Origin: a phage
Strand: one strand, 5' to 3'
Length of the DNA stretch: 64,000 nucleotides
Assembly (NCBI GenBank): GCA_014435945.1
Contig: GCA_014435945.1_4088.1
Shown here: positions 1 through 31,462 of the stretch, piece by piece
Position numbering within the stretch: position 1 is the stretch's first letter
How the letters are laid out: each line of letters opens with the position of its first letter
Translations under genes and position numbers: made by a program
The notes under the pieces: model-generated
The model's input: only the letters and a program-made list of their open reading frames with translations
The model's database searches: none
What the model was told of the DNA's origin: nothing

Positions 1-2385
<2,385 letters not shown>

Positions 2386-6074: not shown

Positions 6075-7137
<1,063 letters not shown>

Positions 7138-7156
7138 CAGTATATAACCTAAAAAA

Positions 7157-9317
<2,161 letters not shown>

Positions 9318-24279: not shown

Positions 24280-24969
24280 ATGAAACGTCGTCATGTTAGT
24301 GTTGATATTGAAGCTCTCGGAACTCCTGAAAACTCTGGTTATGATATTATTATTCCAAATTATGCAGCAGTAGTTGTTCCAAGTAAACCTGAACATGATA
24401 TCAGACAATTTGTATATGTTAAGTTACCATACCAAGCACAAGTCAACGCTGGGCTGAAATCAGATGCAGGTGCAATGGATTTCTGGATGAATACATGTCA
24501 GAAGGAATATCCTAATGCATATGCTGAAGTTGCCAGTACTATGGCACTTGTTGCACCAGAATTGTACGGTCCTAATGGTAAATCCAAACAAATCTTTACT
24601 TCTAATGGTATTGTCGATTTCTGGAAAGATATCCGTTTTGATTGTTATGGTAACGAGGTTGAACATTCAATTTGGGGAAATGGCTGCAACTTCGACTGTA
24701 GTATTTTACAAGCTAATCACTTAAAACTATTAAATGTTGGTGATTTGTGGAAATATGATGCTCCTGAAAACGCACGAACCCTGAAGCGTTTATTGAATGA
24801 AGAAGCTCGTACCGAAATGGATGAGATTGTGTCAGTGCAGTTAGCTAAATTCGTGAAGTATGTAGAAAAATGTGGTATTGATGGTTTGGAATTACATCAC
24901 CCTCTGTATGATGCAGCACGTGAAGCTATCCAAATCTCCTATTGTCTCAATAAACTTAAACTGGACTAA
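24280..24969 (+). CDS. DEDD-type 3'-5' exonuclease (DexA-like)
   Basis: VSVDIEALG (Exo I) and HHPLYDA (Exo III) motifs. Confidence 0.6.
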   Translation: MKRRHVSVDIEALGTPENSGYDIIIPNYAAVVVPSKPEHDIRQFVYVKLPYQAQVNAGLKSDAGAMDFWMNTCQKEYPNAYAEVASTMALVAPELYGPNGKSKQIFTSNGIVDFWKDIRFDCYGNEVEHSIWGNGCNFDCSILQANHLKLLNVGDLWKYDAPENARTLKRLLNEEARTEMDEIVSVQLAKFVKYVEKCGIDGLELHHPLYDAAREAIQISYCLNKLKLD

Positions 24970-24972
24970 TAC

Positions 24973-26067
24973 ATGAATTTTATTATTCTGTTGATTCCTT
25001 CACTTATCGTTGTATTTGTTATGAAATACATGTATGATAAGCATATCAGTACTAAAGAACTGTTGATTCATATTGGTTGTTGTATAGTTGGTGCTGCTCT
25101 TGTGCTTGGTATCTCATATGCAATCAACTACAGTCAATTGTACGATGTAGAGATTCTAAATGGGCAGGTAACATCCAAATATAATCACAAGGAGTTTTGT
25201 ACACAATCAAGCTCATGTAAGCATTACACGTGGCACGAGAAATGCAGAACTCGTTATGATAGTAAGGGGAAATCCCATCGTGAATGTGAGTCCTATAAGG
25301 TATTTGATTATTCATACGAAGTTGACTGGTATGTAAAAAGTACTGTAGGGAAGTTTGAGATTAATCGAGTAAACCGTCAGGGTACAATGACCCCTCCACG
25401 CTGGCAACAGGTTAACATTGGGGATTATGCTGCCGCAGAAAGTTCTTATATTAACTATCTGTTCGCTGATAAAAACTCATTGTTCAGTCCTGATGAATTA
25501 CATGAAATGTATGATGAGAAATATCTTAGTACTTTACCAGAATACCCAAGTGTGGTAGACTATTATAAAACACACCATGTAATCAACACTACTAATTATA
25601 ATGTAGATGGTTATGATGAGTATCTGCGTGAAGAACTAAAAACTATGGGTGCACGTAAACAAGTCAACATCCAAGTTTTGGTTTATGATTATAAAAACGT
25701 AGATTTTGTTGAGGCAACACTCGCTTCGTGGCGTGGTGGTAAGAAGAATGATGTTATTATGTTCTTTGGAATTGATAATGATGGGAAGATTGTTAAATTT
25801 GATAGCACTTCCTTTGCACAAGGCATGAAGAACGAAGAACTACATGCTAAGATGCGAATGGATGCATTAAATGAAAAATTAACTCTTGACTTGTTGAGCA
25901 AAGAAGTGCATAATATTGACACAAAGTTTGAAAGACTCTCTAATAAAGAGTTCGAGTACTTGTCTGTAAAAATGGAACCACGTAAAGATGTTCTCATCGG
26001 TGCTTCTATTTTGTTACTGATTGTATCTATTTTCATTGGCCTTTATATGAGGGATAACAAGTTATGA
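24973..26067 (+). CDS. membrane protein
   Basis: N-terminal and C-terminal hydrophobic helices, Cys-rich segment. Confidence 0.5.
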   Translation: MNFIILLIPSLIVVFVMKYMYDKHISTKELLIHIGCCIVGAALVLGISYAINYSQLYDVEILNGQVTSKYNHKEFCTQSSSCKHYTWHEKCRTRYDSKGKSHRECESYKVFDYSYEVDWYVKSTVGKFEINRVNRQGTMTPPRWQQVNIGDYAAAESSYINYLFADKNSLFSPDELHEMYDEKYLSTLPEYPSVVDYYKTHHVINTTNYNVDGYDEYLREELKTMGARKQVNIQVLVYDYKNVDFVEATLASWRGGKKNDVIMFFGIDNDGKIVKFDSTSFAQGMKNEELHAKMRMDALNEKLTLDLLSKEVHNIDTKFERLSNKEFEYLSVKMEPRKDVLIGASILLLIVSIFIGLYMRDNKL

Positions 26068-26618
26068 ATGGTAAAATTATTGCATTGATTGGTGTTGTTG
26101 TTGTATTCGGTCTTATGGCAATTGGTTCAGTTAGTATGTATGTAGATGCACATGACCGTGCTGTTGAATTTGAAGGTAATATTAAAAAGTACTATGATGC
26201 ATCAGAAAGTCAACTAAGTAAATACACTCTTGTCATTCAAGAAAAAGTACAAGTTTCTGATAAGTATAAGGATGCATTGAAAGAAACCATCGAAACATAC
26301 TTTAAAGGTCGTGAAGGTGTTGACCAGAAGTTTGTGATGTCACAGATTCAACAACAGGTTCCTAATCTCGATCCTAAGATTTATCAAGAACTTATGGTAA
26401 CTATCGAGTCAGGACGTACACAGTTCAACAATCTTCAGAAAATGAAAATTGACCAGTGTACTGATTATGCTAAGTTCCGTAAAGGTTTCTGGAACTCCAA
26501 AATTCTTGATACTAACACATTCCCAAGTGAAAATATTGAACATTTATGTACAGTAGTTTCTGATACACGCACTAAGAAAGCAATGGATACTGGTATCCAA
26601 GAAGTAATTAAACTATAA
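26064..26618 (+). CDS. LemA-like membrane-anchored protein
   Basis: N-terminal TM followed by helical domain resembling LemA; tentative. Confidence 0.35.
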   Translation: MNGKIIALIGVVVVFGLMAIGSVSMYVDAHDRAVEFEGNIKKYYDASESQLSKYTLVIQEKVQVSDKYKDALKETIETYFKGREGVDQKFVMSQIQQQVPNLDPKIYQELMVTIESGRTQFNNLQKMKIDQCTDYAKFRKGFWNSKILDTNTFPSENIEHLCTVVSDTRTKKAMDTGIQEVIKL

Positions 26619-26627
26619 TCTAAATTT

Positions 26628-26653
26628 GGGAGTACATTGTACTCCCATTTTCT
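26628..26653 (+). terminator. intrinsic terminator
   Basis: GGGAGTAC / GTACTCCC then ATTTTCT. Confidence 0.55.
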
Positions 26654-27823: not shown

Positions 27824-28177
27824 ATGCTAATTTATTTGAGTGTTCTTGTTATTTCATTACTGGTATCATTAGCAGTACTGAAAGTTGTTGCCATCGGTCG
27901 TAGTAAAATGGATAGTACTGAAACCAGTTCTGTGTTGGACCTAATAATGGATCATCCAAAGATCTGTACTGGGATTGTTGTGTTTGTTCTTCTTATAGGA
28001 ACATTCATTGTACGTACACATTTATACAATATGTATGACTGTAGTGTTCGTTCAATTTCCCAGGGTGTTGAAACCGACTATAGCTGGTACTATGAGAAAT
28101 GTCGCTTCAAAAACCAGCATGGTATTTGGGTTGATTTTGATAAACTGCGTGGCACACCATCTGGTGAAGAAGAGTAA
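27824..28177 (+). CDS. membrane protein
   Basis: two hydrophobic helices. Confidence 0.45.
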   Translation: MLIYLSVLVISLLVSLAVLKVVAIGRSKMDSTETSSVLDLIMDHPKICTGIVVFVLLIGTFIVRTHLYNMYDCSVRSISQGVETDYSWYYEKCRFKNQHGIWVDFDKLRGTPSGEEE

Positions 28178-28179
28178 TT

Positions 28180-28671
28180 ATGTTTGAATTTCCTGAAGAG
28201 TCATTTAACTATATTGACCCTACTGATGATGGATACAGACATATTAATATCTATAGTAAAGCTAAGACTAAGTTAGGTAGGGATCTATCTAACTTTTCTT
28301 CACATAGTTTTACCTTAGAACCATATGGTTGGTTCCCATCGGTAGAAACTTTTTATTTTTGGTTTTTAACAGGCCAGAAACATGATGATCTTAGAAAAGT
28401 GTCGGGTGCTGCTGCAAAAGCAGCGGCGAACAAGTATATGCACGACCGTATTGAAATGACACCCGAATGCATTTCTCGTATCCAGGATGCAATATGTGCT
28501 AAGATATTTCAAAACCCAGAACTTGCTGAACGATTGAGGAAAAGTAAGTTACCCTTCTATCATTACTATGTTTATGGTGGGAAGGTGGTTGATGTATCTG
28601 ATGAACATGACTGGTTTGTTAAAACATTCGAAGATATAAGAATTGTTTTGAAGGAGAACCACAATGAGTAA
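28180..28671 (+). CDS. NADAR-like (YbiA/DUF1768-like) protein
   Basis: LSNF ... S.E.FYF ... helical tail pattern resembling NADAR domain; by eye. Confidence 0.4.
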   Translation: MFEFPEESFNYIDPTDDGYRHINIYSKAKTKLGRDLSNFSSHSFTLEPYGWFPSVETFYFWFLTGQKHDDLRKVSGAAAKAAANKYMHDRIEMTPECISRIQDAICAKIFQNPELAERLRKSKLPFYHYYVYGGKVVDVSDEHDWFVKTFEDIRIVLKENHNE

Positions 28672-28942
28672 ATGTTGGGTATGTTGTAAGCAATTCGATG
28701 AAGATTATATTATTTCTTTGGATGTATTACCACAACAATACATGATATCTTCAGGGAAATATAAACTAGATACAGTTCCAACACCTAAGTATATGGGGAT
28801 TTGTCCATTGTGTAATGCAAATGGGGTATCGAATGAAGTTGTTGCATTCACAAATACACAAACTACTGATTGTGTCGCCGAATATATAAGAAAGAATCTG
28901 GCTTTTTTCACTAGGAGATTATATGAACGAGAGAATCTTTAA
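28664..28942 (+). CDS. zinc-ribbon protein
   Basis: CWVCC ... CPLC cysteine pairs. Confidence 0.4.
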   Translation: MSKCWVCCKQFDEDYIISLDVLPQQYMISSGKYKLDTVPTPKYMGICPLCNANGVSNEVVAFTNTQTTDCVAEYIRKNLAFFTRRLYERENL

Positions 28943-29323: not shown

Positions 29324-29742
29324 AGTACTATCGAATTCGAGTTGGTGTAAGCTCTGGTTTTAGTAATTGGGTATATTATGATTTACCTGATAGCTATACC
29401 GTAGAAGATGTAATTGACTTATATTATGAAGAAGAGTCATGGGTATCCAGTACTGAAACACACAGTGTTGTGTGTGAAGAACTGAGTGCTGAAGATTACA
29501 AGCACTGTACCCAAGCAATGAAGTATTACAGTAAAGATGTGAAGATGTTATCTGAAAACGTTTTTCCTGTAAAAGAATGGGCAATTTTGCTTGCAAATCC
29601 TAACAAACCTGTTAGAATAGGTTATCCAAACAATCATATGGTTTATCGAATGAATGATAAACGTGAGCTAAGTTATCAGTATGATTACAGTGCTTCTAAG
29701 TTTGGAGTTCTAAAACAATTTATGAAGGCTTATCCAGTATGA
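29320..29742 (+). CDS. hypothetical protein
   Basis: 140-aa ORF. Confidence 0.45.
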   Translation: MKYYRIRVGVSSGFSNWVYYDLPDSYTVEDVIDLYYEEESWVSSTETHSVVCEELSAEDYKHCTQAMKYYSKDVKMLSENVFPVKEWAILLANPNKPVRIGYPNNHMVYRMNDKRELSYQYDYSASKFGVLKQFMKAYPV

Positions 29743-30074
29743 GCAAAGACAGCAAAGAATTTATAGTGCGTTGTAGTTGTGGCGATAATACGGAACATTG
29801 TGTTCACATTTCACAATTTGACTTGACACAAGAACATGGAGATGATAAACTTGGTCAATGTCTGGTGAGTATGCGTTTGAATCCTTTCTTAAAATGGTAC
29901 AAACGTGTATGGGTTGCATTGAAGTATATTTTCGGCGTAAACGACTTTCAATACAAAGAAGCAATGATTGATGTTGACATTCTGAAAGAAGTTGTGTTAC
30001 AATTAGAAGATACCCGCTCCGATGAGGTAAAGAAAGAAGAAAGAGATAAACGTACTGATGTGAAGGTTTTATGA
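29739..30074 (+). CDS. hypothetical protein
   Basis: 111-aa ORF. Confidence 0.45.
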   Translation: MSKDSKEFIVRCSCGDNTEHCVHISQFDLTQEHGDDKLGQCLVSMRLNPFLKWYKRVWVALKYIFGVNDFQYKEAMIDVDILKEVVLQLEDTRSDEVKKEERDKRTDVKVL

Positions 30075-31305: not shown

Positions 31306-31462
31306 TTATACCAGTAATGGTTAACATTATCATGTTACTTTCCTCCCTTACATAATAATGATGCGTTATTATTTTATTGTATTATTCCCCTTTTTCGTAC
31401 AAAATCTTTTTCGTACTGCCCCGACCTTCGGGGCATTTTTCTTGTCTAAATTTTGAGGTTCT

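Follow-up and report, generated by a model that had tools for sequence, protein, structure and literature searches.

Representatives of all four recognised NADAR families strip ADP-ribose from guanine in DNA and RNA (PMC12945103, PMC11833690), and phage members have recently become a proven class of enzymatic counter-defence: T4 AdfN, the product of gene 30.3, neutralises the DarTG1 defence, as do two further coliphage NADARs (PMC11825919). A jumbo-phage exemplar of the domain, QAY00367.1 from a coliphage, was listed by Iyer et al. (2021, Viruses 13:63; PMC7824862). Here we describe a gene at 28180-28671 in a 64,000-nucleotide phage sequence (contig GCA_014435945.1_4088.1 of NCBI GenBank assembly GCA_014435945.1; the whole stretch is hereafter the window). 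Its 163-residue product is almost certainly a NADAR-superfamily member, and profile comparisons place its family as a sister of the T4 gp30.3/AdfN "His-type" phage NADARs. The protein is effectively QAY00367.1 itself (162/163 residues identical, differing by R100C, and in the same 90% cluster), and the NADAR identification was therefore already known. A positional orthologue from phage Turkey3, XMR01337.1, is deposited as "NADAR domain-containing protein" and has the same single difference. The sources for these two records offer a domain label and a prediction only, and nothing material differs; the remaining database records of the protein read "hypothetical", and neither NADAR nor ADP-ribosylation is mentioned in the Asteriusvirus genome papers.

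Direct searches with the 163-residue protein gave no match at E<=10 in Pfam, including PF08719 (NADAR) and PF08010 (Phage_30_3), or in NCBIfam, a silence that reflects the limited sensitivity of those models and is not evidence against NADAR. PHROGs assigned the protein to phrog_652 (3e-45) and phrog_11222 (2e-31), both of unknown function, and a single-sequence phmmer search of the PDB returned nothing meaningful (8VCE at E 0.85 is a chance match). A profile of 27 homologues, run with hmmsearch against all PDB sequences, had two significant matches, both of them NADARs: PnNADAR (8BAU, an ADP-ribose complex; 1.9e-4) and E. coli YbiA (2B3W, 5.4e-4). In hhalign, a 77-sequence profile of the family aligned with a 57-sequence gp30.3 profile over 137 columns, essentially full length (97.6%, E 4e-12), and with YbiA at 94.2% (E 1.1e-7); as a calibration, the experimentally validated gp30.3 family reached the same value against YbiA. 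Pfam scans of the 77 members weakly matched PF08010 in 17 (best 1.3e-4) and PF08719 in seven (best 7.2e-4), all below the gathering score, and no other Pfam family was matched in more than two members. It is the agreement of the PDB profile matches, the hhalign results and these weak Pfam matches that underlies the superfamily call. The predicted model has a YbiA-like alpha+beta fold, with a helical core between two small beta-sheets; about 12 disordered N-terminal residues precede the core, which begins near residue 13, and a C-terminal helix spans residues 140-161.

A sequence-only reading of the window had proposed, by eye alignment, a NADAR-like protein encoded by the open reading frame (ORF) at 28180-28671, with LSNF followed by S-x-E-x-F-Y-F and a helical tail. 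The reading frame is exact, LSNF occupies residues 36-39 and S-V-E-T-F-Y-F residues 54-60, and the tail corresponds to the predicted C-terminal helix; the NADAR identity was right, being borne out by profile searches, hhalign and fold. The hidden Markov model (HMM) check that it put forward divided: family-profile searches reached NADARs (8BAU, 2B3W and gp30.3), and the direct Pfam and NCBIfam scans, taken literally, returned the "no profile match to NADAR" that it had named as grounds for giving up the call.

The gene is functional and under strong purifying selection. Relative to its orthologue in phage ph0011 it retains 84% nucleotide and 93% amino acid identity, the ratio of nonsynonymous to synonymous substitution rates (dN/dS) is 0.03 (dS 1.46, dN 0.043), and none of the 11 substitutions falls at a family-invariant residue; this low ratio and the untouched invariant positions are our grounds for regarding it as genuine and selected. 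A six-frame translation of the window, in 244 segments, contains the combined pattern [LF]SNF-x(8-25)-[ST]-x-E a single time.

Conservation was counted across 77 aligned, diverse family members (Table 1). In characterised NADARs, the distal ribose of ADP-ribose lies between a core-helix Glu (E43 in PnNADAR, E88 in EcC7) and an acidic residue of the last strand (E125 or D171) (Schuller et al. 2023, PMC11543638); in phage NADARs a His replaces this last-strand catalytic Glu/Asp (PMC11543638, PMC11125620, PMC12945103). N23, E56, K80, H128 and Y130 are all invariant (77/77) in the present family. E56 aligns with the catalytic Glu, and H128, which aligns with H123 of T4 gp30.3, lies at the start of strand 129-132 in the predicted model. 

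Table 1. Features of the NADAR gene, its product and the surrounding array (residue numbers refer to the 163-residue protein; counts are per 77 aligned family members)
Feature	Position in window	Strand	Details
Terminator-like hairpin	26627..26647	+	5' of the small-gene co-directional array holding the NADAR ORF; context only
Shine-Dalgarno-like purine-rich sequence GAAGAAGAG	28166..28174	+	5 nt 5' of the NADAR ATG, within the final codons of the upstream gene
NADAR-superfamily ORF	28180..28671	+	ATG-to-TAA, 163 aa plus stop; stand-alone domain, structured at ~residues 13-161
First strand motif H21-I-N23-I-Y25-S26	28240..28257	+	H 74/77, N 77/77, Y 75/77, S 76/77; aligns with YbiA I-I-N-F-Y-S
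L36-S37-N38-F39, NADAR hallmark	28285..28296	+	L 77/77, S 73/77, N 76/77, F 74/77; aligns with LSNF of T4 gp30.3 and PnNADAR and FSNF of YbiA
S54-V55-E56	28339..28347	+	E56 77/77; aligns with catalytic Glu: E43 PnNADAR, E88 EcC7, E36 T4, E48 YbiA
Remodelled helix T57-F-Y-F-W-F-L63	28348..28368	+	Family consensus G-Y-W-Y-W-L-x replaces NADAR H-Y-F-Q-x-x-K
G76-A-A-A-K80-A-A-A83-N84	28405..28431	+	G76 and K80 invariant; K80 aligns with K75 PnNADAR / K115 EcC7
H128-Y129-Y130	28561..28569	+	Start of C-terminal beta-hairpin; H128 77/77; aligns with H123 of T4 gp30.3
Terminator-like GC-rich hairpin with T-run	31417..31435	+	Closes the small-gene array holding the NADAR ORF; context only

The family itself is large, uncurated and almost exclusively phage-borne. 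An exhaustive HMM search recovered 2,100 cluster representatives (50% identity) at E<=1e-3, 683 of them at E<=1e-30, and tblastn located homologues in 503 deposited phage genomes, mainly those of large myoviruses: Kuttervirus and other Ackermannviridae, and jumbo phages of Erwinia, Klebsiella, Serratia, Ralstonia, Xanthomonas and Vibrio. One Kuttervirus homologue is deposited as "putative N-glycosidase". Among the genomes of about 185,000 species of bacteria and archaea there were only 20 homologue loci, three of which (L014, L027 and L031) lie on Pseudomonas megaplasmids of 0.95-1.06 Mb; the neighbour family met most often in this 20-locus census was that of TerD-domain proteins, with three members. 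A toxin-antitoxin origin was considered and is not supported: no recurrent ADP-ribosyltransferase (ART) toxin appears among the 25 of 82 neighbour families listed for the 20 bacterial loci.

More than half of the top 150 representatives (79, or 53%) are multidomain. Their fusion partners are DUF4326 (27), YAcAr/YpsA SLOG (at least 21), DprA-like SLOG (11), Macro (6) and DUF488-N3a (6), with single cases of a canonical NADAR, a Metallophos domain and an Rv2179c-like exonuclease; the arrangements seen repeatedly are DUF4326-[module]-SLOG, Macro-DUF4326-[module] and [module]-Macro. In bacterial loci and metagenome-assembled genomes, the recurring neighbours are likewise DUF488-N3a, Macro and DUF488, and these associations match the account of viral ADP-ribose-processing domains given by Iyer et al. 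2022 (PMC9503650). On one phage-like contig, a gene of the NMNAT class (CTP_transf_like) lies two genes from the homologue. On another, a 117-kb metagenomic contig (L005), the homologue P0019 (6001-6435) is convergent with a gene for a 392-residue ART (6500-7678, minus strand; PF03496 ADPrib_exo_Tox and, weakly, PF01129 ART), a pairing that echoes T4, in which gene 30.3 lies about 3 kb from alt. Such ART adjacency was seen in one of the five genomic contexts examined.

As the best single explanation of the gene's function we tentatively favour an AdfN-like counter-defence by nucleic-acid de-ADP-ribosylation, because the four recognised families act on ADP-ribosylated guanine and AdfN neutralises DarTG1. 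By this analogy, the phage would make the protein during infection, and the protein would hydrolyse the N-glycosidic bond joining ribose C1'' of ADP-ribose to an exocyclic nitrogen of a nucleobase, as the tested NADAR families do. Where a host ART defence (DarT1-type, guanine-N2) places ADP-ribose on phage DNA or RNA, the protein would strip it off and allow replication and transcription to resume, thereby acting as an orphan antitoxin analogous to AdfN. The sequence-only reading had likewise suggested that the protein could neutralise ADP-ribosylating defence toxins; this interpretation is partly upheld, with fold and homology supported and the counter-defence role plausible.

Several observations weigh against this reading, among them the residues expected to hold the nucleotide. 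The Lys seven positions after the catalytic Glu (K50 in PnNADAR, K95 in EcC7) contacts the adenine and pyrophosphate, its K95A replacement in EcC7 abolishes hydrolysis of ADP-ribosylated guanine, and G78/R79 bind the pyrophosphate (all PMC11543638). As aligned with gp30.3 and YbiA, the canonical Lys is gone from the present family: the corresponding column holds Leu in 27, Gly in 14, Ser in 12, Ala in six, Thr in five and Lys in three of the 77 members, and the residue is L63 in the window protein. The conserved Gln of the NADAR helix is Tyr in the family, and with both residues replaced the helix therefore reads E-G-Y-W-Y-W-L instead of E-[HG]-[YF]-[FL]-Q-x-x-K. In addition, the equivalents of G78/R79, Gly at position 83 (73/77) and Arg or Lys at 84 (57/77) in the family, are Ala and Asn in the clade of the window protein. 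With E56 and H128 invariant and the Lys, the Gln and the clade's G-R pair lost, alignment indicates that both ribose-flanking catalytic positions are kept and that the nucleotide-binding side has been rebuilt. Genomic setting and literature add to these objections: no ART, Macro, SLOG, Nudix or DUF4326 domain is among the listed Pfam matches (E<=1e-4) of the 99 other ORFs in the window; the published prediction for QAY00367.1 is that it degrades host ADP-ribose-derived soluble signals or toxins (PMC7824862); and Iyer et al. 2022 tie fusion partners of the kind found here to the processing of low-molecular-weight ADP-ribose derivatives (PMC9503650).

The same fold and chemistry may instead act on a soluble NAD-derived substrate, so that the protein would destroy an immune signal or a toxin of the host (cyclic ADP-ribose isomers, ADP-ribose-1''-phosphate or other N-glycosidic derivatives), with the fused or neighbouring SLOG, Macro, DUF4326 and DUF488 domains of related phages handling the molecule's other bonds. 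What makes this nearly as likely as action on nucleic acids is the loss of the Lys, the nature of the fusion partners and the published prediction, which Iyer et al. extend to phage NADARs generally (PMC9503650). The multidomain architectures, the recurring DUF488-N3a and Macro neighbours and the NMNAT-class gene favour it as well, and the remodelled adenine/pyrophosphate helix suits a ligand that is not ADP-ribose linked to a base of a polymer. However, all assayed NADARs act on base-linked ADP-ribose (PMC12945103), the literature that we found reports no cleavage of a soluble immune signal by a NADAR, and the window protein stands alone, with no partner domain among the listed Pfam matches in the 64 kb.

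The altered helix also allows a bolder proposal, which we hold as rather doubtful: that the protein represents a fifth NADAR family, its aromatic E-G-Y-W-Y-W helix in place of E-H-Y-F-Q-x-x-K having been rebuilt for a substrate outside those of known NADARs. The candidates are a different linkage of ADP-ribose to a base, for instance the adenine-N6 adduct that CmdT-type defences place on mRNA, and a soluble immune signal derived from ADP-ribose; were this true, no earlier phage enzyme would be known to reverse such defence chemistry.

Alternatively, the protein may serve the phage's own NAD-consuming enzymes, by reversing or limiting ADP-ribosylation by a phage ART or SIR2 protein or by clearing by-products of NAD-dependent RNA repair. 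The proximity of gene 30.3 to alt and of P0019 to its ART are consistent with this, as is the SIR2 protein (QAY00582.1) that the genome of QAY00367.1 is cited as encoding (PMC7824862); T4-like NADARs are moreover described as co-expressed with ARTs, with a possible role in RNA repair (Iyer et al., PMC9503650). We consider it unlikely, given that ART adjacency was seen in one of five contexts examined, that the demonstrated role of T4 AdfN is directed against host defence (PMC11825919), and that the listed Pfam matches of the other 99 ORFs include no gene for an ART, a SIR2 protein or RNA repair.

A protein that has lost hydrolase activity and only binds, soaking up an ADP-ribose-containing molecule like a sponge or inhibiting a host effector, is about equally improbable. 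The absence of the essential Lys and of the clade's G-R pyrophosphate contacts would suit it, and Johannesman et al. cite a phage NADAR protein that acts non-catalytically against Retron-Eco1. Yet the five positions invariant in all 77 members form the pattern of a maintained active site, and T4 AdfN is catalytic with a His at the same position. Least probable is a metabolic role of the YbiA kind, as an N-glycosidase of riboflavin-pathway intermediates or of some other ribosylated metabolite or nucleotide with no relation to ADP-ribose: the fold is shared, but the last-strand Glu that defines YbiA is a His, the hhalign alignment stops short of the D-x-x-W-G region, the fusion partners are related to ADP-ribose and not to riboflavin, and the family is nearly absent from bacteria.

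The window shares 99.5% identity with Escherichia phage EC.P1 and also matches 33 other Asteriusvirus-type jumbo phages of 310-386 kb; the NADAR gene belongs to a 350-kb E. coli jumbo phage. The stop codon of the upstream gene (28175-28177) lies 2 nucleotides 5' of the NADAR ATG, and the ATG of the next gene, at 28664, creates an 8-nucleotide overlap with its 3' end, placing it in a tightly packed co-directional array. Terminator-like hairpins were not above chance overall (three found, 2.6 expected), and neither were sigma-70 promoter-like sites near the gene (37 against 29.8 +/- 5.1 expected); for this reason no promoter is assigned. By Pfam, the other window ORFs belong upstream to families of replication and nucleotide metabolism and downstream to almost none.

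Both immediate neighbours are ORFans. The upstream gene (27824-28177, plus strand) encodes 117 residues with hydrophobic N-terminal stretches and matches phrog_8041 (function unknown) and, weakly, DUF6097. Its counterpart in phage ph0011, WAE77283.1, carries the label "WWE domain-containing protein". A true label would give the NADAR gene a noteworthy neighbour that binds ADP-ribose, but we dropped it on finding no Pfam WWE match at E<=1, and the label looks unsupported. The downstream ORF (28664-28942, plus strand) encodes a Cys-rich, zinc-ribbon-like protein of 92 residues (C-W-V-C-C ... C-P-L-C-N). Its counterpart in phage fEgEco12, XBS49521.1, is deposited as "DNA primase/helicase", probably an over-annotation, since the product has no Pfam match and its PHROG (phrog_35738) is of unknown function. 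The genes flanking the array, 26064-26618 and 29739-30074 (both plus strand), fall into phrog_1383 (LemA-like) and phrog_12660, both annotated in PHROGs as "virion structural protein"; phage NADAR, Macro and Nudix genes sometimes lie among virion genes, and their products are possibly packaged (Iyer et al. 2022, PMC9503650).

Farther upstream, an ORF within 189-26064, probably 24280-24966 (plus strand), has a Pfam match to the Rv2179c-like 3'-5' exoribonuclease family (5e-9), and the Turkey3 ORF at this position is annotated as DNA polymerase III epsilon; the same family is the one fused once (2.6e-47) to the NADAR-like module, in a metagenomic protein, which may be coincidence. The first ORF of the window (189-926, plus strand) carries a MazG-like PRA-PH pyrophosphohydrolase domain (1.2e-9), and these upstream 26 kb also encode TelA, DHFR, RNase H, gyrase/topoisomerase subunits, pol III subunits and, unusually for a phage, translation initiation factor IF3. 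The 33 kb at 30754-63422 form a very large co-directional block of small ORFans, in which, at E<=1e-3, Pfam leaves at least 62 of 67 ORFs without a match and otherwise recognises a C5 cytosine DNA methylase, a sigma-70-like factor (regions 2 and 3) and a NUMOD4/HNH homing endonuclease.

The wider interest lies in the branch as a whole. With about 2,100 clusters and 503 deposited genomes, it is a very large phage-specific part of the NADAR superfamily that is invisible to Pfam, NCBIfam and InterPro-style annotation and is labelled "hypothetical" almost everywhere; its carriers include Kuttervirus and many jumbo phages that are in therapeutic use or have been proposed for it. Because it keeps the Glu and His without the supposedly essential Lys, it bears on the generality of the accepted NADAR catalytic set, and also on which ADP-ribose-based host defences large phages evade. 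Experimental data from an assayed Vequintavirinae NADAR, AdfN-Bas60, do not carry over, since profiles of the family, gp30.3 and YbiA had no match at E<=10 in the whole genome of rV5; that phage may lack the NADAR gene altogether.

Finally, three characterised groups can be set beside the window protein. The DarG1-type antitoxins (BC4488 family; E. coli C7; G. lovleyi 8BAT) have a DarT1 neighbour, which is not among the listed matches near the window gene. Their N-terminal beta-beta-alpha extension is replaced in the window protein by the short disordered stretch, their last-strand Asp (Glu in PnNADAR) by His, and the K95/K50 equivalent is absent. E. coli YbiA (2B3W; PF08719 N-glycosidase) shares 17% identity with the window protein, which has no Pfam match; its last-strand Glu corresponds to H128, the Lys at Glu+7 is again absent, and alignments end at about residue 121-125, before the C-terminal D-x-x-W-G region of YbiA. 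The closest characterised family is T4 gp30.3/AdfN, which has its own Pfam family (PF08010, "phage NADAR"). Both proteins are core-only NADAR domains of about 150-160 residues, come from small-gene arrays of large coliphages, and share LSNF, the catalytic Glu and the His in place of the last-strand Glu/Asp. They part at the helix, which is E-G-F-L-Q-x-L-K in gp30.3 (Q40 invariant and K43 in at least 90% of 57 sequences) and E-T-F-Y-F-W-F-L in the window protein. Unlike gp30.3, members of the window family share a conserved D-G-x-x-H-I-N-x-Y-S strand at the N-terminus and an H-Y-Y motif, and fusions to SLOG, DUF4326 or Macro domains are frequent among them. The NADAR call for this gene is thus correct and previously published; what is new is that its family is a separate, uncurated sister of gp30.3, very large and mostly labelled hypothetical, in which the Glu and His are kept and the canonical Lys is absent.
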